Part shown: positions 7,946 to 40,472 of the stretch, one piece after another | Layout of the letters: each line of letters opens with the position of its first letter | Position numbering within the stretch: position 1 is the first letter of the stretch | DNA from: a virus | Lineage: Duplodnaviria > Caudoviricetes | Reading direction: 5' to 3' (one strand) | Virus record (IMG/VR): IMGVR_UViG_3300031851_000001 | Length of the DNA: 64,000 nt | The notes under the pieces: model-generated | What the model was told of the DNA's origin: nothing | What the model saw: only the letters and a program-made list of their open reading frames with translations | Databases searched by the model: none | Position numbers and translations under genes: made by a program

Positions 7946-7953
7946 TATTTATA
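7946..7953 (-). promoter_or_regulatory. T4-type late promoter (g23)
   Basis: TATAAATA on minus strand 35 nt upstream of the g23 ATG. Confidence 0.85.
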
Positions 7954-25348: not shown

Positions 25349-25684
25349 TTACCAATTAGGGGTAATCATAGTCATTGTATTTTGTTCAACCTTTGAGTCG
25401 AGAATATTATTTATAGTGGCAATCTTATCAGCACCTAATGCTTCTTCAACCCACGCTATAACATTGGCTTTAGTAACACTATCCAAATCAATATAATCTG
25501 CAGCCGATGTTGTTGATAAGTCAAGCTTTGTAGTTGAAACGTAGCTTGCTTTTTTATTCGCCTCGTTGGTTGCTATCTTTTTCCATTTAACAGAAATGAT
25601 GGCATCTGATAAAACTTCACCTGCGGCATTAGTTTGGTCTAATGTTCCAAGCTTTAGTATCTCCCAAGTATAAGTCATGCTCAT
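25349..25684 (-). CDS. small fibre-associated hypothetical protein (paralog 1)
   Basis: TYTWEI..L, YI..DSVTKANVIAWVEEAL; similar to neighbour. Confidence 0.7.
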   Translation of the reverse strand: MSMTYTWEILKLGTLDQTNAAGEVLSDAIISVKWKKIATNEANKKASYVSTTKLDLSTTSAADYIDLDSVTKANVIAWVEEALGADKIATINNILDSKVEQNTMTMITPNW

Positions 25685-25688
25685 ACTC

Positions 25689-26066
25689 TTATTCTACAGG
25701 AGCTTCAGGTTCTACACCCCAAGGTAATTCTGGACCAGAAACTTCAGTTTGTACATTTATGTCAATATCTTTTTGGATTTGATCATCAATATGCGCTTTG
25801 TATTGTGGATCAGCATTAATCACTGCAGCGATCCAGCCTGTTACATGCGATTCTTCTAATTCTTCAAACGCCGTGAATGATCCAGCTGGTACATTGGCAG
25901 CCGAGAATGGAGTTGCGCCAGAAAATTTTCCAACTTGTCCTGCTTCATTTGTGCCTTGAATTTCCCAGTAAGTTTGAACTACCGCGTTTGTTAAAGTTTC
26001 ACCGGCCGCGTTTACTTGATCTTGTACCTTCAAGTTACGGACAGAATAAGTATATGTAAATGCCAT
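25689..26066 (-). CDS. small fibre-associated hypothetical protein (paralog 2)
   Basis: SD GGAGA supports start 26066 (MAFTYTY); F.AFEELEESHVTGWI, LPW at C-terminus. Confidence 0.7.
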   Translation of the reverse strand: MAFTYTYSVRNLKVQDQVNAAGETLTNAVVQTYWEIQGTNEAGQVGKFSGATPFSAANVPAGSFTAFEELEESHVTGWIAAVINADPQYKAHIDDQIQKDIDINVQTEVSGPELPWGVEPEAPVE

Positions 26067-26125
26067 TATTGTCTCCATTTAATTATAGTGTTTGATTCAT
26101 CTTACACTCTTTTAATTTATAGTTC

Positions 26126-26135: not shown

Positions 26136-26699
26136 TTACCCACCGCGATACAAATATAAGTCAACCGGTACACATATTCTAAGACTAGAATAATAAGGAT
26201 TGACGTGGTGGTATGTAAAGCTTGGAAATATCATAAAATCTCCAGTTTTTGGTGTGATTGCTTTTTTATCAAATACATCGTTCCACCAATCATCGTAGCC
26301 ACGATTTGCGTTTGTTCTTGGATCTGAAAAAACAATATCGCCACCAGAGTTTTGGTCTTCAGCTAGTATATAAAATACACCAGACAAATGAGCACCTGAG
26401 TGATTATGTATAGTCATGTTATAATCTTTTCCATGACCAGTAATCCACGCTTTCATCTCGTGCGCTTTATAATCTGTAATATGTTTTCCAATGCTTGCAT
26501 AGAGATAGCGATCAAAGTTGCTATATACCATGTCTTTAAATTTATTCATTTCATCTGAATTATCTTTGAATATATTTCCACCGTTTACTTCACCTTCCAT
26601 GTTATTTAAATCATAGTTAGTAAAAATATATTCTATTAATCCATCAGTATCAAATTTTCCTGAGCCAATCTTTGTTGGCCACATTTCTTTAAATTCCAT
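26136..26699 (-). CDS. Fe(II)/2OG-dependent oxygenase (TIGR02466-like)
   Basis: HNHSGAHLSGVFYI, GDIVFSDPR, GDFMIFPS.TYH.V. Confidence 0.8.
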   Translation of the reverse strand: MEFKEMWPTKIGSGKFDTDGLIEYIFTNYDLNNMEGEVNGGNIFKDNSDEMNKFKDMVYSNFDRYLYASIGKHITDYKAHEMKAWITGHGKDYNMTIHNHSGAHLSGVFYILAEDQNSGGDIVFSDPRTNANRGYDDWWNDVFDKKAITPKTGDFMIFPSFTYHHVNPYYSSLRICVPVDLYLYRGG

Positions 26700-26725
26700 A
26701 ACACAATCTCCATAATATATGAATC

Positions 26726-26733
26726 TATTTATA
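26726..26733 (-). promoter_or_regulatory. T4-type late promoter
   Basis: TATAAATA on minus strand upstream of 26699. Confidence 0.75.
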
Positions 26734-26745
26734 ACATATAACTGG

Positions 26746-26779
26746 TTGACATATTCGCTTCTTTGTGGTATTATAAATA
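26746..26779 (+). promoter_or_regulatory. overlapping sigma70-type and T4 late promoters for the + strand radical SAM operon
   Basis: TTGACA(26746-51)-N17-TATTAT(26769-74) with TGn, overlapping TATAAATA(26772-79). Confidence 0.7.
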
Positions 26780-26809
26780 CATATCGTATATTACCATTGG
26801 AACTACATT

Positions 26810-27280
26810 ATGATAGAAACATTTGAAGAATTTGAAAACTGGTTAATGACAGAAGAATGCTTTGAGAACCATGATGTATCTCATATAGATAATAACGGCA
26901 ATCAACATTATTTAGAACATTCAGAATACATTTCTTACCTTGGTGCTATTACAATTTTATTAGCAAACAAAGCTACGATTAAAGTAGAACAAGCCGAGCA
27001 ATGGTTTCCACATATAGCTGGAACTGCACACATCTTCTATAACAATGACAATGGTCCATCGTTTGATACTCACACGGATCCTATAGATATTTTAATAGAG
27101 TGCATAGCCGGTAAAAAGACTTTAGAAATAGATGGTAAAGAATATACACTAGGACCTCGCGACAAAATTGGTATTGCTAAAAATACTAAACACAGAGCAC
27201 TTAATTATGAAAAGGCATTGATGATCTCATATGGCATTGGCGATACAGAAACACTTACTCGTATACGTAAAAACGACTGA
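26810..27280 (+). CDS. JmjC/cupin-4-like hydroxylase
   Basis: SFDTHTD (HxD) ...GKKT...KH facial triad in cupin fold. Confidence 0.7.
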   Translation: MIETFEEFENWLMTEECFENHDVSHIDNNGNQHYLEHSEYISYLGAITILLANKATIKVEQAEQWFPHIAGTAHIFYNNDNGPSFDTHTDPIDILIECIAGKKTLEIDGKEYTLGPRDKIGIAKNTKHRALNYEKALMISYGIGDTETLTRIRKND

Positions 27281-28259
27281 AACCTGCAATCTTAATTGCG
27301 CACACTGCTTTACGTCTGGTATTAACGGTAGAAAAATCTACTTTGATGCTGAAAAGACTGCTAAGTGGTGTAATGAGTTGTGTGATGGTACAAACGAAAT
27401 ACATTTTGAATACCACGGTGGTGAACCTTTATTAGCACCTATGGCAGACCTAATGAAGTTTTATAATATTACTAAAGAACATTGGGGTGACCGATGTACG
27501 CATGGTATTACAACTAATTTGGTTTATAAACTTACTGATGAAAGACTTGAGTTTTTAAAATTATTAGATGGTGGTTCTGTAGGCACATCTTGGGATCCAA
27601 ACATTAGGTTCTCTAACGAAAAGCAGCGTAAACTATGGGAAGACAATGTAAAACGTTTAGTTGACGAAGGATGTTTTGTTAAATGTTTTATATCAGTCTC
27701 AAAAGATGTAGTTAAAATGGATCCGCTTGAAATAGCTGACTATATGCATTCATTAGGTGTTGAGTGTATAAACTATGAGCGTTTAACACATGATGGTAAT
27801 GCAACAATTAACTTAGATATTTTTCCGCATAACAGTGAGTTAGATGCCTTTTGGATGAAGATGCACGAAACTACACAAGACCATCCTGTAGCCAATGCGT
27901 TTCTTGGTTCTGTTTATGATAAGTTTAGTAAAGGACAATTTTTTAACGGAACTTTTTGTAGAGACTGCGAACAAAAATTACATACCATCAATGCCGATGG
28001 GACTGTAGCCGGTTGTCCTAACACTGCACCAACTCAATGGTATGGTACTATTGATACTCCTGCAAAAGAAGTTCGTCAATCGCCAAAACGTATGGAAGTT
28101 ATATCATGTGAAATGCACGAAAGAGATCCACGCTGTTATGATTGTCCTGTGTTTATATATTGCCATTCTGATTGTCACCAACTTCAATGGATGGAAGATG
28201 TTTGCCCAGCACCTAAAACATTAATGATGAAACTTGCAAAGGATAAGGGATGGATTTAA
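27231..28259 (+). CDS. radical SAM/SPASM protein (rSAM-A)
   Basis: CNLNCAHC, HGGEP, C-terminal CRDC..CPN and CYDCPVFIYCHSDC...C. Confidence 0.92.
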   Translation: MALAIQKHLLVYVKTTETCNLNCAHCFTSGINGRKIYFDAEKTAKWCNELCDGTNEIHFEYHGGEPLLAPMADLMKFYNITKEHWGDRCTHGITTNLVYKLTDERLEFLKLLDGGSVGTSWDPNIRFSNEKQRKLWEDNVKRLVDEGCFVKCFISVSKDVVKMDPLEIADYMHSLGVECINYERLTHDGNATINLDIFPHNSELDAFWMKMHETTQDHPVANAFLGSVYDKFSKGQFFNGTFCRDCEQKLHTINADGTVAGCPNTAPTQWYGTIDTPAKEVRQSPKRMEVISCEMHERDPRCYDCPVFIYCHSDCHQLQWMEDVCPAPKTLMMKLAKDKGWI

Positions 28260-29290
28260 TTATTAAACCAACAGAGGCTTGTAATTTCAAGTGTACCTTC
28301 TGTTCATCAACTGATATTGATGCTGATAAGGCTGGTTTACTTGATTTAGAATATGTTTATAAATTTCTAAAACGCTATCCTGACACCAATACGATTATTG
28401 TAAATGGTGGTGATCCGTTAATGGTTGATCCAAAATGGTATTGGGATTTGATTGCTCACCTTGACGAACACGATTACCCTGCATCAATTAGTTTTACATC
28501 AAATCTTTGGCCATTCCTTATTAGACCAGAGAAATGGTTACCTTTATTTAAACACGAAAGATTTGGATGTACTACATCATTTCAATATGGTGGTGGAAGA
28601 TTAAAAGGTGATTACTCTGAGTTTACTGAAAAAGATTTTTGGCGGGTATCAGATGCTATGTTAAAACATACTGGTGAACGTCCAAGTTTTATTTCTGTAA
28701 TCGTTGATGAAAACTTTGATGATGCAATTAAAAATGTAGAGCTTGCTAAAGAAATGGGAGTTGAATGTAAACTTAATTACGCTATGGCTTCTGGCGTACA
28801 AGGTTCTACGTTTAGGCTAAGTAAAATATACGAAACCTATATAAAGATATATGATATGGGCTTAGCAGAATATGAACACAATACTAAACAAATGATGGTA
28901 AGATTAAATAAAAATAGTTACACCTCTTGCCCACAGAATAGGCAATGCGATAGTGGTATTCGTGCATTTAATCCGGGTGGTGATTACTATTCTTGTGGTT
29001 CGTTTGCTGACGATTACGATTACCCTATTAATTTTGAAGAAGAGATGAATGGTGAAATGCAGACACCATTGCAGAATGATCCTAATATACAGACAATGAA
29101 AATGGCTTGTTATACATGTCCAATGTTTGATATATGTAATGGTTGTAAGAAAACTGTACGTGATATGAAACGCGAAGGTCAAGCTGAGGATCATTGTTAT
29201 CATATGAAAAAACTAGCACCAAGAATACTTGAAATAAACGGAATGGATCCGGGATTGGCGACACCTTATGTTAATGAATCTATCAATTAA
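28250..29290 (+). CDS. radical SAM/SPASM protein (rSAM-B)
   Basis: CNFKCTFC, NGGDP, CPQNRQC..SC and CYTCPMFDICNGC...C. Confidence 0.92.
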   Translation: MDLIIKPTEACNFKCTFCSSTDIDADKAGLLDLEYVYKFLKRYPDTNTIIVNGGDPLMVDPKWYWDLIAHLDEHDYPASISFTSNLWPFLIRPEKWLPLFKHERFGCTTSFQYGGGRLKGDYSEFTEKDFWRVSDAMLKHTGERPSFISVIVDENFDDAIKNVELAKEMGVECKLNYAMASGVQGSTFRLSKIYETYIKIYDMGLAEYEHNTKQMMVRLNKNSYTSCPQNRQCDSGIRAFNPGGDYYSCGSFADDYDYPINFEEEMNGEMQTPLQNDPNIQTMKMACYTCPMFDICNGCKKTVRDMKREGQAEDHCYHMKKLAPRILEINGMDPGLATPYVNESIN

Positions 29291-30182
29291 TCCAACATAC
29301 TATTGTAACTTTGCTTGTGATTTCTGTTATTTAACTACAGAGCAATTAAACGATAGACATAAAATTACTCCTTTATGGTTAGAAAACAGCCTACAACAAA
29401 TTACTGACAAGGTTGGTCATGTTGATTTATATGGTGGAGAGATTGGTTTACTATCGCCAGAATATTATTATTCATTAAAGAAAGTAATACGCAATCATTA
29501 TAAAGGTCCTATTAATATCAATACTAACTTATCGGCATTCCCTGACTTTTTTAGAGATGAGGATGTAACGTTATCCGTATCATATGATTTCCATGCCAGA
29601 GAAAAAGAGCAGCACATTTTAAATAACATGATGAATGCCAATAAAGATTTATCTGTATTGATATTAGCCTCGCCAAAAGTATTAGAGATGGATGTAGAGT
29701 TTATGATCTTTACGCTTAATATGATTTCTAATGTTCAGTCAGTTGAAATTAAACCATATTCAATTAATCAAGCAAACCAACATAATGTAACACATAAAGA
29801 CTTTGAAGATTTCGTTATTAAGTTTGATGAAGCAAATACAGAAAAGAATTTTAATTTCCAAAACATTGATAATATATACAATAGCATAGAAGGTAAGTAT
29901 GATGCTTTTAGTAATGACCACGTTTACATAACGCCACGTGGAAAATTTGGCGTCTTGGAATTTGATAAATATGATAGAGAATACTTTAAAGAGTACGACA
30001 CTTACCATGAATATTTAACGTGGGCACGTGAAGAACCTGAGAATAATTTGAGCGATATATGTAAGGCATGTTCTTATTATGGGAAATGTTTAACAGAACA
30101 TTATCGGTATGTACACGACTTAACCAATAGTTGTAATGGATATAAAGGGTTATTAGATTATTATGAAAGAATGGAAAGCTAG
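29268..30182 (+). CDS. radical SAM protein (rSAM-C)
   Basis: CNFACDFC, YGGEI, C-terminal CKACSYYGKC...C. Confidence 0.88.
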   Translation: MLMNLSINPTYYCNFACDFCYLTTEQLNDRHKITPLWLENSLQQITDKVGHVDLYGGEIGLLSPEYYYSLKKVIRNHYKGPININTNLSAFPDFFRDEDVTLSVSYDFHAREKEQHILNNMMNANKDLSVLILASPKVLEMDVEFMIFTLNMISNVQSVEIKPYSINQANQHNVTHKDFEDFVIKFDEANTEKNFNFQNIDNIYNSIEGKYDAFSNDHVYITPRGKFGVLEFDKYDREYFKEYDTYHEYLTWAREEPENNLSDICKACSYYGKCLTEHYRYVHDLTNSCNGYKGLLDYYERMES

Positions 30183-30561
30183 GCAAAGCGCATATCATTT
30201 AACGGCATCGTTGTTTAAAGATGATCTGACTGACGTAGAAATTAATTGGCAGCCAGATAATATTGTTGATTATGCTCTTATACATTTCAGAGAATATGTT
30301 GACGAATGGATTTATCCTGCAAAATCATATGTGGTTGCGATATGTTATGCGCATTGGTTAAACAGAGATTTTAAAGAACCATTCTTTGATGCGCTTAATG
30401 ACGAAGCTTTATTGTTTAATAACGATCCACACTTTGTTCCATATTGGCAAGACAAAGATACATATGACGAAATATTATTTAAATTAGACTTTAACGAAAA
30501 ACTTGGTATGGTACCTGACATATACGAATACTATAAAGAGGAAATGTTATTTGGACTTTGA
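30163..30561 (+). CDS. hypothetical protein in radical SAM operon
   Basis: 132 aa, overlaps both neighbours. Confidence 0.7.
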   Translation: MKEWKARQSAYHLTASLFKDDLTDVEINWQPDNIVDYALIHFREYVDEWIYPAKSYVVAICYAHWLNRDFKEPFFDALNDEALLFNNDPHFVPYWQDKDTYDEILFKLDFNEKLGMVPDIYEYYKEEMLFGL

Positions 30562-31627
30562 AATAACAAAAACACTATTAGAAACTAAACGTCCGGATAT
30601 AGCCGAGATTGAGTTGACTTTATTTGAAAACTGTCATCTCAATTGTTCGTTCTGTCACCACGATAAAAAATCTACCGTAGGTTTGAGCAGGGAAGAGATA
30701 TTTTCTAAATTAGATTTGGTTGAACAACATGTCATTAAGATGAAAGGCAGAGTTGATATAATACAAATCAATATGGTTGGTGGCGAGTTATTCCAAGATA
30801 GAATATCAGAATGGGCTTACCCTGTTTACTTTGATTTTTTAGTAGCAATCAAAAAGATATTTGATGAACATAAACAAAAGATTAAAGTTGTATGGGTAAC
30901 ATCGTTTCAATTCAGTAAACGAGATAGAGTTCAGCGACTACTCGACGACTTAAACGCTGAAGCTATCCCTTCCTATATTATATGTTCATACGATTTTGAC
31001 GGGCGACCAACAAAAGGTCCATACGCTAAAAATATAGAATACTTTGCTGATTATATCATATCTATTAATATGGTTGCTACTACTTTGTCAATCAAAAAGT
31101 TTATGGCAGACGACGATGAGTATTTCCATTACTTATATGAAAAGTTTGATGAATTTTACTTTGATGATTATATTCCAGATCGTGGATATGATTATATGAT
31201 TCCATCAGATAGTGAGTACCTCGAGTTTTTAAAATTTGTATACCATCACTATCCTGACATTAACCCTATTAAAGATCTCATATATAATGAGAGTAACCAT
31301 ATGCATTGCTTGGCTTTAAACAAGGTTACGATATTCCCAGATAATTCTACATCAAATTGTCGGTGGGATAGATACGATCAACGAGATTTTAATACAGAAT
31401 ACAAACCTAAAGATAACGCCGGAATGATGCAAGCCTATATGGACGAGAATGGTTGCTTATCTTGTAAGTGGTGGAATAAATGTGGTTTCCGCTGCTATAC
31501 ACAATGGGATTGGAAAAACAGAGAACGCGATTTACCTGACTGCATAATGAGAATGTGGTTTAATTATATGGACAAAACAGGTCAAAATTTGATAACAGGA
31601 TTTAATTATGATAAAGAAAAAACTTAA
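30503..31627 (+). CDS. radical SAM/SPASM protein (rSAM-D)
   Basis: CHLNCSFC, VGGEL, HC..NC and CLSCKWWNKCGFRC...C; true start may be TTG 30551 (SD GAGG). Confidence 0.88.
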   Translation: MVWYLTYTNTIKRKCYLDFEITKTLLETKRPDIAEIELTLFENCHLNCSFCHHDKKSTVGLSREEIFSKLDLVEQHVIKMKGRVDIIQINMVGGELFQDRISEWAYPVYFDFLVAIKKIFDEHKQKIKVVWVTSFQFSKRDRVQRLLDDLNAEAIPSYIICSYDFDGRPTKGPYAKNIEYFADYIISINMVATTLSIKKFMADDDEYFHYLYEKFDEFYFDDYIPDRGYDYMIPSDSEYLEFLKFVYHHYPDINPIKDLIYNESNHMHCLALNKVTIFPDNSTSNCRWDRYDQRDFNTEYKPKDNAGMMQAYMDENGCLSCKWWNKCGFRCYTQWDWKNRERDLPDCIMRMWFNYMDKTGQNLITGFNYDKEKT

Positions 31628-32327
31628 ACTTGATTTTTACACAGCACACCAAACACTTGTAGACTTACAACCAATTAAAGCCAGAACTAAGCCACCAACG
31701 TGGTGGAAATCTATTAAGAATTCGTATGACCAATTTAGGTCTAGGGTTGGCGTTAACGTTCCAACTCCGACGATTAAAACATGCCCAGGAATTGTTGATT
31801 ATATGCGTAAGCCTATCGTTCTTAAATTGTGGTCAGATGGTATTTTTAGAGTAAAACCAAATGGCAATGTTGAGTGCATTGAGCCATTACATAATTCTGG
31901 TCAACTTGATGGATCTCAACATGAACGTAAACAATTTGGCGATACATTATATCCAAATAGAACTGTATTTAAATTACATGGACCTTGGGCTGTTAAGGCA
32001 AGCGAACGTAAAGAGTTTATGATTACTGAATGCCATTATAGTGAGGATTTGCGTAAGCACGATATTTTAATATCACCTGGGATTACAAACTTTTATGACC
32101 AACACACATTAAACGTATTCTTAGCGTTTCCAATTAAAGACGAAGAATATACTGTTACACTTAAATATGGTACGCCTTTAATGTCAATATACCCAATGCA
32201 CGAAATGGAACTTGATATTAAAATGCATGAGGTAGAATCAAAAGAGAAATGGCATAGAATACAACACGTATATCCATCAACCTTTATCGGACGTTATCAC
32301 TCCCGGAAACACACACGCAGTAAGTGA
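31608..32327 (+). CDS. hypothetical protein, marine-phage family
   Basis: 239 aa, TIKTCPGIVDY...LWSD and LKYGTPLM..YP motifs; last gene of the + operon. Confidence 0.65.
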   Translation: MIKKKLKLDFYTAHQTLVDLQPIKARTKPPTWWKSIKNSYDQFRSRVGVNVPTPTIKTCPGIVDYMRKPIVLKLWSDGIFRVKPNGNVECIEPLHNSGQLDGSQHERKQFGDTLYPNRTVFKLHGPWAVKASERKEFMITECHYSEDLRKHDILISPGITNFYDQHTLNVFLAFPIKDEEYTVTLKYGTPLMSIYPMHEMELDIKMHEVESKEKWHRIQHVYPSTFIGRYHSRKHTRSK

Positions 32328-33332
32328 ATGGTGTTCCATATAAGATAGGACACCTTTATCAATACATGTCATTAAATTTTTACAAGAAGCACAATTGTCA
32401 GTTTCACTTGAATAAGTCAACTGTGACATAAACTTATTTTCTTTTACTTGAGTCCATGACTCAATATCGTTTTCATCTTTGACCACAAAATTATCTGTAC
32501 CAATTAAAGCAATATCATATACGAATGGTGTCCAAAAGAAACGTTCGTTACAATAAGTATAATTTAATTCTAAAGAACCACCTTGTGCTTGGTCAATAAA
32601 TGTTTTAGGCATAAGGTCGTCGGCAAAGTCATAGTTTTTCCATTTCTCAATAAGATGCTTTTGCACTTTAGATTTAGGTGCTCGGAAGAATGATGGATTT
32701 AAAGTAAGTATAGAATCAAACCGTTCCTCAACAAGTTTTGACATCTCGAGTACTTTATTATTCTCAACATCATCATTACCCATATTATATACCATATAAT
32801 AATTTAAATCATCTGTCAACTCATTTAATATTCCTAATTTATATTCAAGTACATTCCAATTAACTGGCGGCTGCAGGGCTATGTTACAATCATACATAAA
32901 TCCCTCGGCCTTTGGAATACTATTCAGCATTTCAATAATATTAAAATCAATCTTTTCTAATGTTGTAACGAATTGAATAGTAGTTACTTTACTTAAACAC
33001 TCTCGGAATGTTTCGTCTTTCAACAACTCGGTGATATTATTATTACCAAATAAATCAGTTGGACCAATATTAATGGTTGACACGCGATAGCCATTGGTAT
33101 TAAATAAATCAATGGCGTTGTTTAATCTATCAAATGATCCCATATTTGATCCGAGTTTATTGACAAAACAACCTTTACATTTAAACTCGCAGCCAGATAA
33201 TACTTCGCAATTAAATTGTACTTTGATTTCATGTCCTTCACTAAAGGATAAATCAAAATCTTTATCAGCTTGTGCAGCACGCTTATTGTTAGTAACTATT
33301 CCCATGGTATACCTCATCATCATATAAACCAA
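32277..33332 (-). CDS. divergent radical SAM protein (rSAM-I)
   Basis: CEFKCKGC, IGPTDLF, C-terminal CASCKNLMTC...C. Confidence 0.85.
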   Translation of the reverse strand: MVYMMMRYTMGIVTNNKRAAQADKDFDLSFSEGHEIKVQFNCEVLSGCEFKCKGCFVNKLGSNMGSFDRLNNAIDLFNTNGYRVSTINIGPTDLFGNNNITELLKDETFRECLSKVTTIQFVTTLEKIDFNIIEMLNSIPKAEGFMYDCNIALQPPVNWNVLEYKLGILNELTDDLNYYMVYNMGNDDVENNKVLEMSKLVEERFDSILTLNPSFFRAPKSKVQKHLIEKWKNYDFADDLMPKTFIDQAQGGSLELNYTYCNERFFWTPFVYDIALIGTDNFVVKDENDIESWTQVKENKFMSQLTYSSETDNCASCKNLMTCIDKGVLSYMEHHSLTACVFPGVITSDKG

Positions 33333-34443
33333 TTACATCTTTATTTAAGATGCATTCTTTTCTTCCATCAAACACAGTATCCATAATCATTGGAACCATT
33401 CTATTCGCACATATATTTAAATACTTACAACTGCCACACTCTTTTTCAGAACTTTTTTCAATTTGGCTATTGACAATCTCGTTCTTTTTGTTTAATATAT
33501 AATCAACAATATCGGCATCAGGTAACCAAAGCCAACTATTATCAACTTTAAAATCATCTGTATGGATTTGAGCATTCTCATATATGAATGGCGACAAATA
33601 CATATCTCCGTGGTATATACTAACTACAGAATAATGAAACGCTTTATGTGATACGTCACCTTGTAAGAAATGGAATTTGTTTTTAAACTTATGTGGATCT
33701 GCAGCCAATCGAGTTAACATATCATTCCATTCAAATAGTTTGTCTCCGTGCTTTGCGCTATGATTAAAAGAACGTACTACTGACGGTAATACTTCGATTA
33801 CTGTTTCATACCTAGCTCTAACAAATTCAATAGCAGGAAATAATATATCTTCTACACCTTGCACGATATTAGTAGCCATACTTATTTCAAAGTTTAAAGA
33901 ACTATTTTTAAATGTTTCAACTCTTTCATCAAGTGCATCTAGGTATACCTGATCATTCATTAATCTATTTAAATCCAAAGCAATTTGTACATCCCATGCT
34001 TCGACTACTTCGCCTAGCATTGAGTTTTCAATAGCTTTTATTTTACCTTCAATATCTTTTTCAGATAATGATCCGAGTATAGAACAGTTATGTTGGATAT
34101 TTCTATTATCTTCAGGCATCATGGATATGGCATCAGCAAGCCTTTGATTATTAATAATCTCTTCTAAATTTTGAGCACCATAAAAGTCGGTTGGGCCAAT
34201 CACAATGTCGTCTAATACAATATCAGTTCTATCTTTTAATTCAAATGCCAAGGAATGAAATGTTGCGATTGAGTTTGGGTTCCAATTACCTTTACGTTTA
34301 ACAAAACAACCCGGACACATATATGAACAACCTTCGAGTATTTCAAGGTTGACCTGTATTTTATATTCTTTCATATTGTCGATTGAAGTAAATTCCTCAC
34401 CTCGCCCACCGTCTACAATATTTTTCCAATCATTATTTAACAT
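33289..34443 (-). CDS. divergent radical SAM protein (rSAM-H)
   Basis: CSYMCPGC, IGPTDFY, CGSCKYLNIC...C. Confidence 0.85.
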   Translation of the reverse strand: MLNNDWKNIVDGGRGEEFTSIDNMKEYKIQVNLEILEGCSYMCPGCFVKRKGNWNPNSIATFHSLAFELKDRTDIVLDDIVIGPTDFYGAQNLEEIINNQRLADAISMMPEDNRNIQHNCSILGSLSEKDIEGKIKAIENSMLGEVVEAWDVQIALDLNRLMNDQVYLDALDERVETFKNSSLNFEISMATNIVQGVEDILFPAIEFVRARYETVIEVLPSVVRSFNHSAKHGDKLFEWNDMLTRLAADPHKFKNKFHFLQGDVSHKAFHYSVVSIYHGDMYLSPFIYENAQIHTDDFKVDNSWLWLPDADIVDYILNKKNEIVNSQIEKSSEKECGSCKYLNICANRMVPMIMDTVFDGRKECILNKDVIGLYDDEVYHGNSY

Positions 34444-35590
34444 ATGATATATCCTTTAATCGTTTTAGTTCTGGATCGTCATCATCAGTAACTAAAAACT
34501 TTTTACGATAACCGTTCTTATCGTTTTCAACAGAATAACCATCCCATCCATACATTGTCTGAGCAGGACCATTATAATTGTTTATATTATTTAGCATATT
34601 CTCTTTTGGTGCTATGCAGCGGTCTACTCCAAGGTAATCCCTTAACATTATTATTTTTCTGTTATAACAACTAAAGAATAATGGGCAATCCTCGCATTCA
34701 GTACCTTTTGCTCTTTTAATTTGATGTTCAACCATTGGAACAACATCATCAAAAGATTTGACTTTAAACATATCATCATATATCGCCATGTTCTCATACA
34801 TAAATGGACTTAAATACCATTCACCGCGTTTGTAGTTTAATACAGTGTAATTAATACCTGCGTGAGAATGGTCTACCATAATATTGTTTAGCTTGGACTC
34901 TTGGTGCCATGTGCTAAAGTATTCGTTAAACTCATCAAGCGTTTTTAAGATTATGTTTGCTTTATGCGAACGAGATACTGACGGAATAAAATCTAATATA
35001 GTATCAAAACGTTTTACAGCCTGATCATGCAATGCCTCATAATCTAATCCATAATCTTTAATGTTAACAACAAACGTATAAGTAACCTCATGTTGAATGT
35101 GTGTATCTATATAGGCTAACATATCTGATATATGTTTTGTGTATTCGTCAGTAAAAAACTTATGTGGATTTGTAGCGATACCAATTTCTATTTCAGTATC
35201 TAAATTAATATTATCAATAAGGAAATCGCAAAACTTTTTAATATCACCATCAATAAGAGTAGAGACAAAAGCTAGGATAGGTGAGTTTTCATTAATGATA
35301 TCTACGAGTTCTGGCATTACTTGATAGAAATTTTCTGATGCTAAAAAGTCTGTAGGACCAATTAATATTTCATCAACAAGTATCCCTTGGTCAGTAATAG
35401 AACGTATGAACTCTTTTGCCATATATACTTGGCTTTTATCACTAGAGTTACCCCGTCGATGTACAAAGCATCCAGGGCACTTGTGGTGACAACCGTCTAG
35501 TACATCCATTTGAATTTTAACAGCGCTGACGGGCTTAGTTTGGGTCTCTGTCGTCATCTCATAATAGAGATTATTTTTAATCAGAGGCAT
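34433..35590 (-). CDS. divergent radical SAM protein (rSAM-G)
   Basis: CHHKCPGC, IGPTDFL, CEDCPLFFSC...C. Confidence 0.85.
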   Translation of the reverse strand: MPLIKNNLYYEMTTETQTKPVSAVKIQMDVLDGCHHKCPGCFVHRRGNSSDKSQVYMAKEFIRSITDQGILVDEILIGPTDFLASENFYQVMPELVDIINENSPILAFVSTLIDGDIKKFCDFLIDNINLDTEIEIGIATNPHKFFTDEYTKHISDMLAYIDTHIQHEVTYTFVVNIKDYGLDYEALHDQAVKRFDTILDFIPSVSRSHKANIILKTLDEFNEYFSTWHQESKLNNIMVDHSHAGINYTVLNYKRGEWYLSPFMYENMAIYDDMFKVKSFDDVVPMVEHQIKRAKGTECEDCPLFFSCYNRKIIMLRDYLGVDRCIAPKENMLNNINNYNGPAQTMYGWDGYSVENDKNGYRKKFLVTDDDDPELKRLKDISYVK

Positions 35591-36599
35591 ACATATATTC
35601 CTTTAATGCGACGCAGCTATCTAATCCTCGCGACTCCATATATAAATGTATATTACGTTCAGCACAACTCATCATATACTCGCAGCCATTACAATCATCA
35701 ACCTGTTGAGCATAATCTATATTTTCATATAAAGTATTCGCATCCATTGTTGTTTCAAAATTTGGAGTTCTTTGAATAATAACATCATACAAGAATGGAT
35801 TTAAATATAGTTTATTATTATAGAAGCTATAATTTTGGCAGCCATATCCATTAAACTTTGCATCAAAAAATGTATAAAGGTTAAGCCATTTCTTATCAAT
35901 ATCTTGCTCAATCATTTCACGTCTAAAGTTTGCAAGGTGTTGTTCTACTTTACCACGCGCGTTCCTATCTGTTAAAAACGACGGTGTAATTATAACTGGT
36001 GCATTATAGTCATCATATATCCGTTGACATAAGTCGTTATATGTGATACGCTTAAATACATCTTTATGATAATTAACTCTAAATTGAACTGAACCTAACT
36101 CAAACATTTTAAGTTTACGGTTCCAATCGTCTAGTTCTCCATCAAGGTACTTGTCTATATCTAAAACGATTTTAAAATCAATATCAGGTACTCTATGAAC
36201 ACCTTCATATAAACTCCATATCATATCAAGTTTAGTTCTTATCTCGGCATATGATTGAAGTAATGTTGATGTAAATCCAACTGCTGATATTTCGTAAAGC
36301 TTTTTCATATATGGATGTTTCATAATTTCATGGAAGTTCTCTGCATCAAAAATGTCAGTAGGTCCAATCGTTATCTCGTCAGGATAATATGCGCCGTCCA
36401 TTAATAAATTGTATAATGTTTCTAAGTATTCAGGTTTAGTAAGGTTTTTACGTGGAATAAAACATCCTGGGCACGACTGAGCGCAGCCATGTAATATGTC
36501 TAGGTTTATTTCAGTACGTAAGAAGTCTGTATTAATAGGGCTCTTATCTTTATCATACGTATAATAACCTGCATATGTTTTATTCAGTTTTACTATCAT
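35577..36599 (-). CDS. divergent radical SAM protein (rSAM-F)
   Basis: CAQSCPGC, IGPTDIF, CNGCEYMMSC...C. Confidence 0.85.
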   Translation of the reverse strand: MIVKLNKTYAGYYTYDKDKSPINTDFLRTEINLDILHGCAQSCPGCFIPRKNLTKPEYLETLYNLLMDGAYYPDEITIGPTDIFDAENFHEIMKHPYMKKLYEISAVGFTSTLLQSYAEIRTKLDMIWSLYEGVHRVPDIDFKIVLDIDKYLDGELDDWNRKLKMFELGSVQFRVNYHKDVFKRITYNDLCQRIYDDYNAPVIITPSFLTDRNARGKVEQHLANFRREMIEQDIDKKWLNLYTFFDAKFNGYGCQNYSFYNNKLYLNPFLYDVIIQRTPNFETTMDANTLYENIDYAQQVDDCNGCEYMMSCAERNIHLYMESRGLDSCVALKEYMYASD

Positions 36600-37416
36600 C
36601 GGCTACACTAGCGGCATTGGCTTTAGCCTCTGCTTCGATTTCAGCTTGTAAATCTTCATCAGACTTTGGTTTTGGAATTTCAACGCTGTTAATAAACCCA
36701 GGAGGCATCATTGATAAAATGTTACTAGTAATATTACTTTGTGTCAATAAGAAAAACAAATCTTTACCAAAGTATGCAGGTTTATCATTATACATCTGTT
36801 TATTATATTCTTGTTTAAATCCAAGCATAGAACAAACTAATAGGAAACCATCCCAGCCATCTATAAGAAGGCGTGCAACGTTTGGACCACAATTTGCTGG
36901 CTTGTCAGTTACTTCAATTTGCTCAACAGCTTCTTTTACATCAACTTCAATTGCTTTGTTTTCATCTGATAAGTTTTCGTAAAATTTGCAGAGTGTGAAT
37001 GGAATAAGTTCAGCCATTGCATTACAAACATCTTCTATAAGTTCATAGTTTTTGTCTACGAAGTCGTGCAATTGTTCTTTACTAAAGAGGCCAAGTAATT
37101 GTTCTTCTAAGCCATTAAACTCATACATGTATCTTACTTTGATTGCCATTACAACAAACCGTGATAGCAGTGGTGCTTCTACGATAAAGTCTGATTTAAT
37201 ATATTCTATTAATAGTTCTTCGTCAACCTGCGCAAAGGTTGTTTTAAAATTAGTATTGGCCAAATAGATTAGAATATGTTTGGCTGATAACTTTTCTTTT
37301 GATGCTAAATAATCTACCCATAAAACAAAGTTTTCGTTGTCTTCTTTTAATTTATATATTTCAACTAAATTTTGCGGTGCTAATGGCAGCGTATATAAAG
37401 TTTGCTCTTCACTCAT
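36580..37416 (-). CDS. hypothetical helical protein in radical SAM operon
   Basis: 278 aa, overlaps next gene. Confidence 0.75.
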   Translation of the reverse strand: MSEEQTLYTLPLAPQNLVEIYKLKEDNENFVLWVDYLASKEKLSAKHILIYLANTNFKTTFAQVDEELLIEYIKSDFIVEAPLLSRFVVMAIKVRYMYEFNGLEEQLLGLFSKEQLHDFVDKNYELIEDVCNAMAELIPFTLCKFYENLSDENKAIEVDVKEAVEQIEVTDKPANCGPNVARLLIDGWDGFLLVCSMLGFKQEYNKQMYNDKPAYFGKDLFFLLTQSNITSNILSMMPPGFINSVEIPKPKSDEDLQAEIEAEAKANAASVADDSKTE

Positions 37417-37431
37417 AATAAAATCACTTTC

Positions 37432-38535
37432 TTATATCAATGGGTATTTATGAATTAAATATGGAATTCTGTTTTGACGTTTTGAAAAGAACTGAACATC
37501 TGTGTTAATTAATGCCAAGTCTTCTCTAATATTATCTGTGTTAAAGTTTCTTTCTAAAACTTTTTTAACAATAGGGAACACGTTATTGATTTCAGTATAT
37601 AAATCCATGTATTCCCAACCGTCAGCAGTCGTATCAGCTTTATTTTGATGAACGGCTATAAAGGCAGCGTCGTCTTTAACTTTATTCCACATTTCTTCTA
37701 ATTTATAAAACGCTAATGTATAGTTAGATTTATTAGCAGCATTTACATATACGTCTTTAAAGAATTGTTGTTTATCTGTAGCCCAGCCATTTTCTTCAGT
37801 TGCATTAGCATTCATATAATCAATAACTGACATAATATATGCCGAGTAGTGACGACGTGAAGTAAAGTGTTCCATAACATCTTTTGCCATAACTGGTGAA
37901 TGAATAGTAAATTTTTCAACAATCAATTCTGAAACGCCTGCACATGAATAGAAATCGTTTAAGAAGAATAGCAAGTCATAACTAAAGTTTTTACCATTCT
38001 GATATGTAATTACCCAAGGTGTTTCGCCTTCAGCATTTAATAAAGTATTTGTATGGTTTCTAACATCGTTATAAACTGTCGAGTTGCTCATTAAAGATAA
38101 TACTAAATCTTGGTTAATAACTGCTTCCATATAATGAGCAACCATCGCATTAATTGTTGTTGCATCTGCGTCAGGATAAAAACCACATGATGTTAACAAA
38201 CCAGCAGTATATTTTGCAAATACTTTAATCATATCCTCTTCGTCTGTAAACATAAGAATACGCTTATCACTATTTTGAATATAAGTAGGATTGGCAATAG
38301 TATCCCATTCTTCAAAATCTAATAGTTCTGATGAGCCTGATCGTGCACCTTCTGCCAGCGCTTCATACTCAGCAGGCTGAAGAAATGAGTCTACAAGGTC
38401 AGGCTGTACAATAGTAATTCGTCTTGGTTCAGCAGTGTGGTAAAAAGAATTTAATTCACCAATTACTGTTTCAACGTTTTGTGTATTCGTAATATACTTT
38501 TTATTATTTAAGTAATATAAACTCTGCCCAATCAT
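37432..38535 (-). CDS. hypothetical protein in radical SAM operon
   Basis: 367 aa, ATGA overlap with rSAM-E stop. Confidence 0.75.
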   Translation of the reverse strand: MIGQSLYYLNNKKYITNTQNVETVIGELNSFYHTAEPRRITIVQPDLVDSFLQPAEYEALAEGARSGSSELLDFEEWDTIANPTYIQNSDKRILMFTDEEDMIKVFAKYTAGLLTSCGFYPDADATTINAMVAHYMEAVINQDLVLSLMSNSTVYNDVRNHTNTLLNAEGETPWVITYQNGKNFSYDLLFFLNDFYSCAGVSELIVEKFTIHSPVMAKDVMEHFTSRRHYSAYIMSVIDYMNANATEENGWATDKQQFFKDVYVNAANKSNYTLAFYKLEEMWNKVKDDAAFIAVHQNKADTTADGWEYMDLYTEINNVFPIVKKVLERNFNTDNIREDLALINTDVQFFSKRQNRIPYLIHKYPLI

Positions 38536-39707
38536 GATCTTACTCCTAATTTTTCTATTGCGTCATCGTTCCAAGTAAAATCATACGGGTTATATTCTGC
38601 AAGGACATCTTTGTTCAATACACAACCGTTGACGTTTAATGATTCTTGGGCTTCAAAGATTAATCTGCTTGCACAGGCAACTGCAAATTTACAGTCAGCA
38701 CAATCTTTTACTTTACTAGACCTATTTATACCTTTTGTCACTAGTTCATTTTTACGATCTAATATTTGCTCGAATGTTAAACCAGTAACATCTAAATTTT
38801 TATTACCTAAGAAAAACGCTTGCTCATGCAGCATTACATTTAGGTGTGTAGTTGGACCATTTTCTCCTGGGACAATAGTAAGTCCAACAAAGTTAATTGA
38901 GTTACAATAAAGATTAGCCATTGACATAACGGTTTCTTGCGCATTATCTTTATCAATAACTCTACCAAGGAAATCGTTCCAACCAAATAAATTCTTTCTT
39001 TGTATCAATTGTGAATTGGCTCTAGAGAAAGCAGGGTTCATTTCTACAATTGTTTCATATTCGTTTACAGATTTTTGAATAATTTTATTATAAGTTTCTT
39101 TATCAATTTTTCTACCAACAACGTTAGAAGCCTGTAATGTCCACGACCAATCCATTTGTTTTGGTGTATTATTTTTAAAGAACTCTACCTTTTCCATAAC
39201 GTTATTAAAATATTCGTCATCGTTTAACATCTGATCTACTCTACCGATTGGCATAATAAATTCGATAATCATTTCGCGACGATACTTATCCTCATCATCA
39301 AGTACGGCAAAGATTTCTTTTACTTTATCCATAGTAGCCAAATCAAATTTAGCAGGTGCCGCGATACGAGCGCCAGTATGTTCTCTCATAATTTCTTGGA
39401 CTACTGAATTATTTAATACTGACTCTGTATTTTTAGCAGTGAAAAAGTCTGTTGGTCCAATAACGAACTCTCTTAAGTTAAGTCCAGTTCTTTTTACACC
39501 ATCTGCTAATTCTTTTGCTCTATCAATAATTTGTTGGTTCATAGCAGGGTCTATGTTTTTATCAACGAAACAACCTAAGCAGCCGTGATTACATCCTGCT
39601 AAAACTTCCATTTGAATTAGAACATCAAACTTAGTAGCATCTGACGGTGTTAGGCTTTCTGGACCAGAGTACCGCATTTGCTTACAATATGATTTTTGCA
39701 TTGACAT
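38532..39707 (-). CDS. divergent radical SAM protein (rSAM-E)
   Basis: CNHGCLGC, IGPTDFF, CADCKFAVAC...C; start at 39707, 1 nt after the upstream stop (track's 39800 extension lies in the upstream gene). Confidence 0.85.
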   Translation of the reverse strand: MSMQKSYCKQMRYSGPESLTPSDATKFDVLIQMEVLAGCNHGCLGCFVDKNIDPAMNQQIIDRAKELADGVKRTGLNLREFVIGPTDFFTAKNTESVLNNSVVQEIMREHTGARIAAPAKFDLATMDKVKEIFAVLDDEDKYRREMIIEFIMPIGRVDQMLNDDEYFNNVMEKVEFFKNNTPKQMDWSWTLQASNVVGRKIDKETYNKIIQKSVNEYETIVEMNPAFSRANSQLIQRKNLFGWNDFLGRVIDKDNAQETVMSMANLYCNSINFVGLTIVPGENGPTTHLNVMLHEQAFFLGNKNLDVTGLTFEQILDRKNELVTKGINRSSKVKDCADCKFAVACASRLIFEAQESLNVNGCVLNKDVLAEYNPYDFTWNDDAIEKLGVRS

Positions 39708-39708
39708 C

Positions 39709-40092
39709 TTATCTTCTTCCTCTCGAACTGTGGCAACTAGTATGACAACTTGCGTGACAATAGTATGCGTTAATAGTTCTGTTTGACATTCTTCCTTCAA
39801 TTAGATCAACTGTTCTTCTAGTTATATCTTCCAATGTATCAACAATATCCTGTCCGTAAATAATATTACCACTATTGATACCACCATCTACATAGTTATC
39901 ATATACATAGTAGTTTGCATTAACATATTCAAATCTATGGTAATGCCACTGTCCTCTAGTATAACTGGTAGCAGCACTACTAGCTCTTACATATGCGTTA
40001 ACATAAATTCCAACCGTTCTATCGAACGTTCTTAATTGTTGACCACTATATGTTCTTACCCACGACCTAACGTCATTTCTATCCATAGTCAT
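39709..40092 (-). CDS. putative radical SAM substrate/precursor protein 2 (C-terminal CHASCHTSCHSSRGRR)
   Basis: 127 aa, Tyr/Asn/Arg-rich, TAATG-coupled to its paralog. Confidence 0.8.
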   Translation of the reverse strand: MTMDRNDVRSWVRTYSGQQLRTFDRTVGIYVNAYVRASSAATSYTRGQWHYHRFEYVNANYYVYDNYVDGGINSGNIIYGQDIVDTLEDITRRTVDLIEGRMSNRTINAYYCHASCHTSCHSSRGRR

Positions 40093-40472
40093 TAGCGGCG
40101 CCCTCTCGAACTATGACACGAAGAATGGCAACTTGCGTGGCAATAATATGCATTAATAGTTCTGTTAGATATTCTACCTTCGCATAAATCAACCGTTCTA
40201 CGAACAACGCTACGAATAGAATCAATAACATCACCAGAACGAATAATTCCGCCAGTGTATATACCGCTATCCAGATAATTGTTATATACATAGTAGTTTG
40301 CATTTACGTATTCAAACCGCGTATAATGCCATTGACCTCTGGTATAACTTGTTCCCCAGTTAGAACCTCTAACATAAGCGTTGATATAAAATCCTACGGT
40401 TCTATCAAATGTTCTTAATTGTCGACCACATTGGTTTCTTACATTTGTATTTAACTGTGCATACGTTGGCAT
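40092..40472 (-). CDS. putative radical SAM substrate/precursor protein 1 (C-terminal CHASCHSSCHSSRGRR)
   Basis: 126 aa, starts 1 nt after the tail fibre stop; 83/111 residues identical to paralog (manual count). Confidence 0.8.
   Translation of the reverse strand: MPTYAQLNTNVRNQCGRQLRTFDRTVGFYINAYVRGSNWGTSYTRGQWHYTRFEYVNANYYVYNNYLDSGIYTGGIIRSGDVIDSIRSVVRRTVDLCEGRISNRTINAYYCHASCHSSCHSSRGRR

Follow-up and report, generated by a model that had tools for sequence, protein, structure and literature searches.

Introduction

The bacterial HXS system (HxsA/B/C/D; TIGR03976–03979) uses a protein with His-x-Ser (HxS) repeats, matured by radical S-adenosylmethionine (rSAM) enzymes, to block the entry of phage DNA (PMC13128918, Nat Commun 2026). 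Maturation of HxsA by the rSAM enzymes HxsB and HxsC involves a change of +8 Da on SHRSS (PMC13128918). Two other rSAM enzymes, HtkB and HaaB, make His cross-links (PMC11499958). In phages, 12 rSAM genes were found in a T4-like marine genome and grouped with Fe-S metabolism genes (PMC5332604), and rSAM cassettes lie within the host-recognition cluster of pelagimyophages (PMC7029224). In this study, we analyzed an island at positions 26136–40472 of a 64,000-nucleotide stretch of IMG/VR virus record IMGVR_UViG_3300031851_000001 (the whole stretch is hereafter the window). The island encodes nine CxxxCxxC proteins (rS1–rS9), a 2-oxoglutarate-dependent (2OG) oxygenase, a cupin, four proteins without assignment (unk132, unk239, unk278, and unk367), and two paralogs with a C-terminal tail of Cys-His-x-Ser (CHxS) units. 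The open reading frames (ORFs) named in an earlier note on this DNA were all found where it had placed them.

The tail and a set of rSAM genes are strongly linked in both directions, and the tail lies beside such genes in genome contigs as well as in phages. With a probability of roughly 60%, we interpret the enzymes as late-expressed factors that modify the CHxS tail of a hypervariable, fibre-associated virion protein. To our knowledge, no structural virus protein has so far been described as matured by rSAM enzymes.

Co-occurrence of the CHxS tail and rSAM genes

The two tailed proteins, CHxS_A and CHxS_B, are 73% identical and both terminate in CHxSCHxSCHSSRGRR, as the earlier note had described. 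All 25 homologs in one alignment and all 54 in another share the invariant tail. Among 54 metagenomic homologs together with ORF068 of phage RSL2 and gp65 of Pseudomonas phage DT01, the C-terminal 16 residues hardly depart from the pattern C-H-x-S-C-H-x-S-C-H-x-x-R-G-R-R, whereas RSL2 ORF068 and DT01 gp65 are only ~25% identical outside the tail. Expressed as entropy, the tail has 0.30 bits and the rest of the protein 1.1–2.2 bits.

We searched IMG/VR with a nucleotide pattern encoding the tail and the stop codon after it, and labelled the ORFs around the matches by homology to the window proteins. The pattern occurs at a stop codon in more than 116 viral stretches and in 23 genome contigs, which is a recurrence far beyond chance. 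A tail-ending ORF is present in all but two (L072 and L098) of the 116 IMG/VR motif loci (L015–L130), and rSAM homologs lie beside the tailed ORF at every one of these loci that has flanking sequence. The same is true of 23 of the 23 genome contigs (L131–L153). In the reverse direction, relatives of rS2 are encoded by more than 339 IMG/VR viral stretches, and 80 rS2-centred loci were fetched. Among these, 58 end before the expected position of the tailed gene and one (L237) is rearranged; the tailed ORF was found in 21 of the 21 loci that reach this position. The association that the earlier note had proposed to look for between the tail motif and rSAM arrays is therefore strong both ways, across IMG/VR, genome contigs, and rS2-centred loci, and rSAM arrays lacking CHxS proteins, which that note had regarded as evidence against its proposal, are not common within the reach of the 80 loci.

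The window carries such a cassette, with a protein ending in (CHxS)n-R-x-R-R beside orthologs of rS1, rS2, rS3, rS4, the cupin, unk132, and the 2OG oxygenase. Two architectures were distinguished. Type I cassettes have the order (fibre-end domain)-cupin-rS1-CHXS-(unk278)-rS4-rS2-(2OG)-rS3-unk132, with rS1 immediately upstream and rS4 directly downstream of the CHxS gene. The window represents Type II, in which fibre-CHXS-CHXS-rS9-unk367-unk278-rS8...rS5 faces rS4...rS1-cupin. Ten close relatives (L005–L014) are fully syntenic with the window; the enzymes in these relatives are 65–98% identical, whereas the CHxS proteins are only 50–85% identical. The 151-kb record IMGVR_UViG_3300025138_000014 (L061, L074, and L216) contains a twin short-CHxS locus behind a fibre gene and a separate rS1-CHXS(204 aa)-rS4-rS3 locus, indicating that one genome can hold two cassettes.

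Variation and predicted structure of the CHxS proteins

An AlphaFold2 model of CHxS_A (mean predicted local distance difference test score, pLDDT, of 83) shows a small alpha/beta domain, with the tail at low confidence. These last 16 residues are probably flexible. Insertions in the alignment are concentrated at one place, with 33 of 40 insertion columns at residues 38–41, which form the tip of a long beta-hairpin in the model. When the model was compared with the PDB using Foldseek, no match was found at E <= 0.001; the top row was an endosialidase intramolecular chaperone (3gw6), which was rejected as not significant (E 0.3). All template-modelling scores against a structure atlas were below 0.5. 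The comparison with BFVD gave weak rows only, including a 296-aa protein of Agrobacterium phage Atu_ph07 and a 178-aa entry that we take, from protein size alone, to be the DT01 homolog. A tblastn search of 50,697 phage records with CHxS_A found none, the query being too short and variable for this purpose.

The number of tail repeats also varies: some Bdellovibrionota have four units, and one Dysosmobacter contig has about 13. In this respect, the tail resembles repeat-type cores. The latter contig (L142; 4.3 kb, from a Dysosmobacter segnis isolate) has its ~13 CHxS units in blocks split by SNV(P)V and ending in SARGRR, and the tailed ORF adjoins homologs of rS4 and rS2. The MCIRDS at the start of this ORF is presumably adaptor read-through at the contig end.

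Probable late expression, fibre association, and virion location of a homolog

A T4-type late-promoter motif, TATAAATA, lies upstream of the cupin gene (26772, plus strand), the 2OG oxygenase gene (26726, minus strand), the fibre gene (48899, minus strand), and CHxS_A (40539, minus strand; 67 nt before the gene). The sites at 7946, 8982, 9717, 11031, 15179, 22199, 26126, 26726, 26772, 40539, 48899, and 55319 are located 20–70 nt before the starts of head, portal, sheath, fibre, and island genes. With 16 occurrences in the window, the motif is not enriched in number relative to shuffled sequences, but it is in position. In addition, TTGACA-N17-TATTAT is found just upstream of the cupin operon. 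The earlier note had reported tight coupling in the minus-strand operon, and its three junctions match the DNA exactly (TAG-t-ATG, TAATG, and TAA-g-ATG), such that the CHxS paralogs are translationally coupled to the giant fibre protein. The late-promoter motifs and this coupling fit late, structural expression.

In the marine clade, a fibre C-terminal domain of ~160–190 aa always precedes the CHxS genes, and it stays conserved beside them where the rest of the fibre differs (L011–L014). The last 200 residues of the fibre (40474–41073) have a weak match to Pfam Phage_cement (E 0.02). The domain recurs in Atu_ph07 gp176 (E 1e-15), which is listed among the virion proteins of that phage (PMC6102473).

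More direct information on location comes from a homolog in the same phage. Atu_ph07 gp170 ends in CHSSCHASCHNSRSRR, and its gene stands in the order cupin (gp172)-rSAM (gp171)-gp170. Mass spectrometry of Atu_ph07 virions identified gp170 by eight unique peptides with 35% coverage in gel bands 1–9, with the highest signal in band 1 (PMC6102473, Supplementary Table S5). In the same table, other proteins of ~30 kDa peak in bands 7–8 and proteins of 87–137 kDa in bands 1–2, and neither the rSAM enzymes gp165, gp168, and gp171 nor the cupin gp172 is listed (PMC6102473). The masses that we computed for gp170, gp176, and gp177 equal the table values exactly, indicating that gene numbering is the same in the table and the genome. 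The suggestion in the earlier note that the small proteins are virion or fibre components, and not secreted peptides, thus gains direct support, from this homolog only, in that gp170, unlike its rSAM and cupin neighbors, was detected in purified virions.

The radical SAM enzymes

All nine proteins have CxxxCxxC and a C-terminal Cys cluster, with rS1–rS4 encoded on the plus strand and rS5–rS9 on the minus strand. The SAM motif is GGE or GGD in rS1–rS4, and an invariant IGPTD occupies the equivalent place in rS5–rS9. Only rS2 exceeds the gathering threshold of Pfam Radical_SAM (PF04055; 39.8 vs 29.5 bits); rS1, rS3, rS4, and rS7 score below this cut-off, and rS5, rS6, rS8, and rS9 have no match. 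The phrog_1802 family, annotated as radical SAM, is matched by rS1–rS4 (E 2e-55 to 3e-19 for rS1, rS3, and rS4). The top NCBIfam matches of rS1–rS4 are the SPASM peptide/protein maturases DarE, DynA, CbpB, anSME, HxsB, PapB, and AmcB, all of them far under the cut-offs; DarE, CbpB, DynA, anSME, and HxsB lead for rS1, and DynA and anSME, weakly, for rS2. Against the SPASM model itself (TIGR04085), rS1 and rS2 score 25.7 and 22.3 bits with a cut-off of 27. Among 26 rS1 orthologs, CxxxCxxC, GGEP, and eight SPASM-type Cys are all invariant, and rS2 orthologs likewise have an invariant Cys set with eight C-terminal Cys in a SPASM-like pattern. By comparison, rS3 and rS5–rS9 have only CxxCx5C...C at the C-terminus, which is twitch-like. 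Orthologs of rS3 include RSL2 ORF077 and a DT01 protein. A sequence search of the PDB with rS1 gave no significant match.

The most widely conserved enzyme, rS2, retains 52–60% identity from marine T4-like phages to phiKZ-like/Rak2-like jumbo phages and Bdellovibrionota, which fits a single shared invariant substrate. Some rS2 relatives (L161, L162, L167, L168, L179, L185, and others) have tblastn matches spanning ~1285–1350 bp compared with 1035 bp elsewhere. The ~250–315 bp of extra DNA in these matches, in which residues 1–346 are still covered, suggests an insertion within the gene, which may be an intron or else a mobile element of small size.

The five minus-strand enzymes are mutual paralogs with 20–27% identity that share GCxxxCxGCF, IGPTD, and CxxCx5C...C, and they nearly escape Pfam and NCBIfam. 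An AlphaFold2 model of rS9 built from 38 homologs (pLDDT 83; predicted template-modelling score 0.87) matches anSMEcpe best in the PDB, together with ChlB, CteB, SuiB, and EpeE; these Foldseek alignments extend over ~390 columns, i.e., the whole length, with probability 1.0 and E 7e-5 to 1e-3. Structure-atlas neighbors of rS9 carry Radical_SAM and SPASM. Lower in the sequence and fold match lists of the enzymes, viperin structures as well as viperin, MoaA, and NrdG models appear. Based on homology to rS9, rS5–rS8 are inferred to share its rSAM fold. A PDB sequence search with rS5–rS9 profiles found no significant match, and an hhalign comparison of the rS5–rS9 profile with the rS1–rS4 profile gave only a weak N-terminal match (probability 11%, E 0.003). 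The homology of the two sets accordingly rests on motifs and fold. The count of nine rSAM proteins in the earlier note was right, with rS1–rS4 identified by sequence, rS9 by AlphaFold2 and Foldseek, and rS5–rS8 through paralogy.

Distribution beyond marine T4-like phages

Among the 50,697 phage records, the only holders of the cassette are the RSL2/RSF1/FLC/SURPRISE13 group, Pseudomonas phage DT01, Agrobacterium phage Atu_ph07, and Sinorhizobium phage Phosso. In the scan of species-representative genomes, 13 of the 23 contigs are metagenome-assembled Bdellovibrionota, with rSAM genes adjacent in all. The cassette is not phage-only. In a metagenome-assembled Pseudobdellovibrio contig (G002:C4, 299 kb; L156 and L157), it is chromosomal, with PilQ/PilM genes at one end and carAB, lepA, and metK at the opposite end. 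The neighbor of the rS1 gene in this contig (L157:4597–5643) encodes 348 aa, with a pilin methylation motif at the N-terminus and, at the C-terminus, a Peptidase_S74 fibre-chaperone domain, and the cluster includes a 575-aa B12-binding rSAM protein.

In jumbo phages and Bdellovibrionota, genes of two more conserved families stand directly 3' of the CHxS gene. One comprises RSL2 ORF070, DT01 gp64, Atu_ph07 gp169, and a 204-aa ORF, and the other RSL2 ORF069, DT01 gp63, and a 363-aa ORF (loci L003 for RSL2, L004 for DT01, L160 for Atu_ph07, and L156:17067–18930). No similarity was detected between these families and unk278 or unk367 of the window. In the RSL2/FLC/SURPRISE13 group, a dihydrofolate reductase gene (RSL2 ORF073, L003:12941–13477) is located in the middle of the cassette.

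The earlier note had called an rSAM array in a phage structural region highly unusual. This is too strong, considering the more than 339 viral stretches with rS2 relatives and the papers that mention such genes. In those papers (PMC5332604, PMC7029224, PMC8066314, and PMC11898562), neither the CHxS tail nor the link between enzymes and tail was found.

Island layout and accessory genes

The source record is a 64.1-kb IMG/VR entry with an estimated completeness of ~29%, representing a fragment of a marine T4-like myovirus. The window contains T4-type head, portal, sheath, terminase, and sheath-stabilizer genes, and the major head protein encoded there shares ~66% identity with its counterparts in phiM12-like and Melnitz-like phages of the T4 superfamily. 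Near-identical DNA is found in marine metagenomes of at least seven studies, and a megablast search of the island against the 50,697 phage records gave no match. Contigs from RNA libraries in three studies are identical to the island; such contigs cannot show transcription, and this observation carries little weight. Coordinates are given in Table 1.

Table 1. Genes of the island and the adjacent fibre gene, with positions in the window and basis of assignment.
Feature	Coordinates	Strand	Basis or remark
2OG-Fe(II) oxygenase	26136..26699	-	PF13759; TIGR02466-like, under cut-off
Cupin, HxD...H motif	26810..27280	+	Opens plus-strand operon; Cupin_2 near cut-off
rS1, rSAM/SPASM enzyme	27231..28259	+	phrog_1802; invariant motifs in orthologs
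rS2, rSAM/SPASM enzyme	28250..29290	+	Radical_SAM passed; most conserved cassette gene
rS3, rSAM enzyme with 4-Cys C-terminal cluster	29268..30182	+	phrog_1802
unk132, accessory protein (phrog_20737)	30163..30561	+	Conserved across cassettes
rS4, rSAM enzyme	30503..31627	+	phrog_1802, E 3e-19
unk239 (phrog_7084)	31608..32327	+	Confined to part of marine clade
rS5, five-paralog rSAM family (GCxxxCxGCF, IGPTD, CxxCx5C...C)	32277..33332	-	Paralogy; fold inferred from rS9 model
rS6, rS5–rS9 paralog	33289..34443	-	Paralogy; weak SPASM match
rS7, rS5–rS9 paralog	34433..35590	-	Paralogy; distant homologs RSL2 ORF071, DT01 gp57/58
rS8, rS5–rS9 paralog	35577..36599	-	Paralogy
unk278, acidic helical protein	36580..37416	-	Kept beside CHxS genes; also in some Type I cassettes
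unk367	37432..38535	-	Conserved in Type II cassettes
rS9, rSAM paralog coupled to CHxS_B (TAA-g-ATG)	38532..39707	-	AlphaFold2 model and Foldseek
CHxS_B, 127 aa, candidate substrate, tail CHASCHTSCHSSRGRR	39709..40092	-	Sequence, alignment, junction
CHxS_A, 126 aa, candidate substrate, tail CHASCHSSCHSSRGRR, hypervariable beta-hairpin tip	40092..40472	-	Alignment, model
Giant fibre protein, 2798 aa	40474..48870	-	C-terminal domain conserved beside CHxS genes

The earlier note had listed two oxygenases. Its TIGR02466-like ORF passes PF13759 (52.8 vs 27 bits) and matches phrog_81 (E 4e-26), but falls below the TIGR02466 cut-off (41.9 vs 62.5 bits). The ORF that it had called JmjC-like is supported only as a cupin, with a Cupin_2 score just under the cut-off (24.4 vs 27.2 bits) and an HxD...H motif recognized by eye. 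Cupin orthologs include RSL2 ORF066 and DT01 gp67, and the order cupin-rS1 is kept in Type I cassettes. In the marine clade, the 2OG oxygenase gene is always flanked by tandem paralogs of 111 and 129 aa (phrog_7802; 25349–26078 in the window) and by genes for two proteins of 347 and 410 aa without family assignment (23047–25319).

Among the remaining proteins, unk132 occurs in both cassette types, in jumbo phages, and in Bdellovibrionota. For unk278, no match was found in Pfam, NCBIfam, or phrog or in a permissive Pfam scan, and unk367 has no family or structure-atlas match. Permissive Pfam scans of the four unk proteins and atlas searches of unk132 and unk367 gave nothing usable. Pfam and NCBIfam scans of all island ORFs matched no peptidase or transporter family, in agreement with the earlier note, which had recognized none.

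Proposed explanation and alternatives

In the explanation proposed here, the island genes would be expressed late, together with and partly through translational coupling to the fibre gene, as their sequence context suggests. The CHxS protein, as modelled, would combine a small alpha/beta domain, a hypervariable hairpin tip, and a flexible 16-residue tail. A universal core (cupin, rS1, rS4, rS2, rS3, unk132, and 2OG oxygenase) would act on this tail. By analogy with enzymes that act on H-x-X motifs, the most likely products would be His-to-Ser and/or Cys-based side-chain cross-links with hydroxylation; the H-x-S units recall HxsA and HtkB/HaaB chemistry, and the period-4 Cys recalls thioether-forming systems. 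The large number of enzymes suggests several steps or extra substrates, and the lineage-specific rS5–rS9, unk278, and unk367 may perform further tailoring or serve the duplicated substrates. The product would reside in the virion and the enzymes would not, as seen for the Atu_ph07 homolog. In the virion, cross-links or bound metal could anchor the protein at the end of the fibre, leaving its variable hairpin turned toward the host. A more specific and tentative version, which we regard as possible but doubtful, is that rSAM cross-links staple the hypervariable protein to the fibre end or make a metal-binding "claw", such that the virion tip would be a product of radical chemistry.

Several observations weigh against modification of the tail. 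The earlier note had proposed that a multi-enzyme pathway heavily modifies the two small proteins; the two-way link between enzymes and tail and the virion-borne homolog support this proposal in part, and no mass shift or cross-link is on record for any member of the family. No leader peptide, RiPP (ribosomally made peptide that is modified after translation) recognition element (RRE), peptidase, or exporter is recognizable in the island. Nine enzymes seem excessive for a 16-residue tail, and other substrates are likely, with the fibre end and unk278/unk367 as candidates. The rearranged locus L237 (IMGVR_UViG_3300008110_000030, 214 kb) has rS4, rS2, rS3, unk132, three 2OG oxygenases, and two 544-aa ORFs without rS1, and no CHxS-tailed ORF was found within 19 kb. 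Concerning the virion data, the gel loading buffer as described for Atu_ph07 lists no reductant, so the high-mass form of gp170 may stem from disulfides alone, and the virion preparation also held some non-structural proteins (PMC6102473).

Some of these points would suit a different explanation, namely that the CHxS tail is an unmodified metal site (Zn, Fe, or Fe-S) or a disulfide anchor, and that the rSAM enzymes act on another virion protein such as the fibre C-terminal domain or unk278/unk367. Three Cys and three His at fixed spacing make a plausible metal site, disulfides could account for the apparent mass of gp170 in a buffer without listed reductant, nine enzymes are more than 16 residues appear to call for, and a fibre C-terminal domain accompanies the cassette in Atu_ph07 and in marine T4-like phages. 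We nevertheless consider this explanation unlikely. RSL2, DT01, and Bdellovibrionota lack the fibre C-terminal domain yet keep the tail and the enzymes, and the tailed protein is the one partner present in every cassette. Moreover, repeat numbers of 3, 4, and ~13 are commonly seen in modified repeat cores but would be out of the ordinary at a defined metal site. The rSAM/SPASM enzymes PqqE and MftC make cofactors from C-terminal peptide residues, and the tailed protein could similarly be a sacrificial precursor whose C-terminal residues become a small molecule or cofactor, in the style of PQQ and mycofactocin, or a released peptide. The variable tailoring genes, including those for B12-binding rSAM proteins in Bdellovibrionota, do resemble a biosynthetic gene cluster. 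This fate is improbable for a folded carrier of 125–300 aa that has a hypervariable loop, is encoded in a fibre module behind late promoters without a peptidase or exporter in the island, and, in its Atu_ph07 homolog, is retained in the virion.

Two further explanations appear highly improbable. The rSAM array may represent auxiliary metabolism or nucleic-acid modification unrelated to the small proteins, such as Fe-S auxiliary metabolic genes or hypermodification of DNA or tRNA. The grouping of 12 rSAM genes with Fe-S metabolism in one paper (PMC5332604) and the dihydrofolate reductase gene embedded in the RSL2-group cassette point in this direction. Against it stand the association with the tailed protein in both directions, the late-promoter motifs, the location within the fibre module, the lack of nucleotide-metabolism genes in the island by Pfam scans, and the best sequence and fold matches, which are peptide/protein maturases even though viperin, MoaA, and NrdG rank lower in the lists. 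DNA hypermodification in particular was rejected as the principal explanation on account of the late-promoter motifs and the matches of maturase type, and because the array and the tailed protein are strictly paired. Equally little credit is due to the possibility that the CHxS proteins, once matured, act in counter-defence or entry by mimicking or antagonizing host HxS-repeat effectors of the HXS type at DNA entry. Here, the homology to HxsA, B, C, and D is only at the superfamily level, the hosts of these phages are not known to carry HXS, and the cassette is also chromosomal in Bdellovibrionota, beside pilus and fibre-like genes. What speaks for such a role is that HXS uses an rSAM-matured HxS-repeat protein against phage DNA entry (PMC13128918), that the phage tail is basic with HxS repeats, and that a virion-borne homolog could reach the periplasm.

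If late-expressed enzymes do modify the CHxS tail, up to ~14 kb of a phage genome would be spent on oxygen-sensitive chemistry that finishes a host-contact protein, and the build-up of rSAM genes in the host-recognition regions of abundant ocean phages would be explained. A new enzyme chemistry on a Cys-His-x-Ser motif would be expected, and phage fibres would be linked to the adhesive apparatus of predatory bacteria. Should the stapling or claw version hold, it would constitute a new class of virion post-translational maturation common to T4-like phages, jumbo phages, and the pilus/fibre apparatus of Bdellovibrionota. Cultured phages that infect Agrobacterium, Ralstonia/Burkholderia, Pseudomonas, and Sinorhizobium make an immediate test possible.

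Comparison with known systems

The HXS system resembles the island cassette in that several rSAM genes stand beside their target, which is a folded protein with tandem, basic-rich His-x-Ser units, and in that a classical RiPP protease or exporter is absent in both. The candidate target in the island, however, has no signal peptide or peptidoglycan-binding domain, its N-termini being polar without a signal-like segment by eye. Its HxS is placed within Cys-His-x-Ser at the extreme C-terminus, followed by RGRR, and its cassette combines four to nine or more rSAM enzymes with a cupin and 2OG oxygenases in a phage fibre module, with a virion-borne homolog. The earlier note had proposed to compare the enzymes with the HxsB/HxsC models; they are neither HxsB nor HxsC, since the scores are far under the cut-offs (HxsB, TIGR03978: 31 vs 370 bits for rS1; HxsC, TIGR03977: 23 for rS2 or 16 vs 268) and indicate likeness only at the superfamily level. 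No island ORF matches the HxsA or HxsD models.

Triceptide-type systems (HaaB, HtkB, DynA, and DarE) have SPASM enzymes that act on aromatic-x-X motifs, a pattern into which the island H-x-S fits, and DarE and DynA are the best NCBIfam matches of rS1 and rS2. In contrast to these systems, the island scores are 10-fold or more under equivalog cut-offs, each unit has an invariant Cys, and the candidate substrate is a 125–300 aa protein without a leader or RRE. The scores for triceptide/cyclophane models are 28 vs 425 bits for AmcB, 26 vs 445 for YhhB, 22 vs 370 for FxsB, and 16 vs 310 for GrrM. The tail is a period-4 Cys repeat, and the CXXX-repeat maturase model is absent among the best 25 of 48 families for rS1 and the best 25 of 32 for rS2. 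Classical RiPP features are also lacking, in that the targets are folded proteins, the enzymes begin at the rSAM motif without an N-terminal extension, and the island ORFs have no match to PqqD/RRE families in Pfam or NCBIfam.

The enzyme anSME (PDB 4K36–4K39) is a minimal rSAM+SPASM protein without an RRE and acts on Cys/Ser of a folded or nascent protein that stays functional. The likeness is in fold only, with anSMEcpe as the top structural match of the rS9 model and anSME also among the matches of rS1 and rS2. The anSME model (TIGR03942) gives 32.5 and 41.8 vs 349 bits, and the tail has no C/S-x-P/A-x-R motif. QhpD is another minimal rSAM+SPASM protein-modifying enzyme to which the island enzymes may be likened. 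The cassette falls outside HxsABC, anSME, and those triceptide, darobactin, and ranthipeptide maturase families that were tested.

The gene position recalls gp38-type proteins of T-even phages, which likewise are encoded by small genes directly after and coupled to the fibre gene and have a hypervariable loop between conserved segments; the CHxS genes also evolve faster than their neighbors. This analogy is positional only, with no sequence or fold similarity found, and we know of no enzyme cassette for gp38-type proteins. The cassette may work most like HXS and anSME/QhpD-type protein maturation, but its genes stand where a fibre accessory protein would be encoded.

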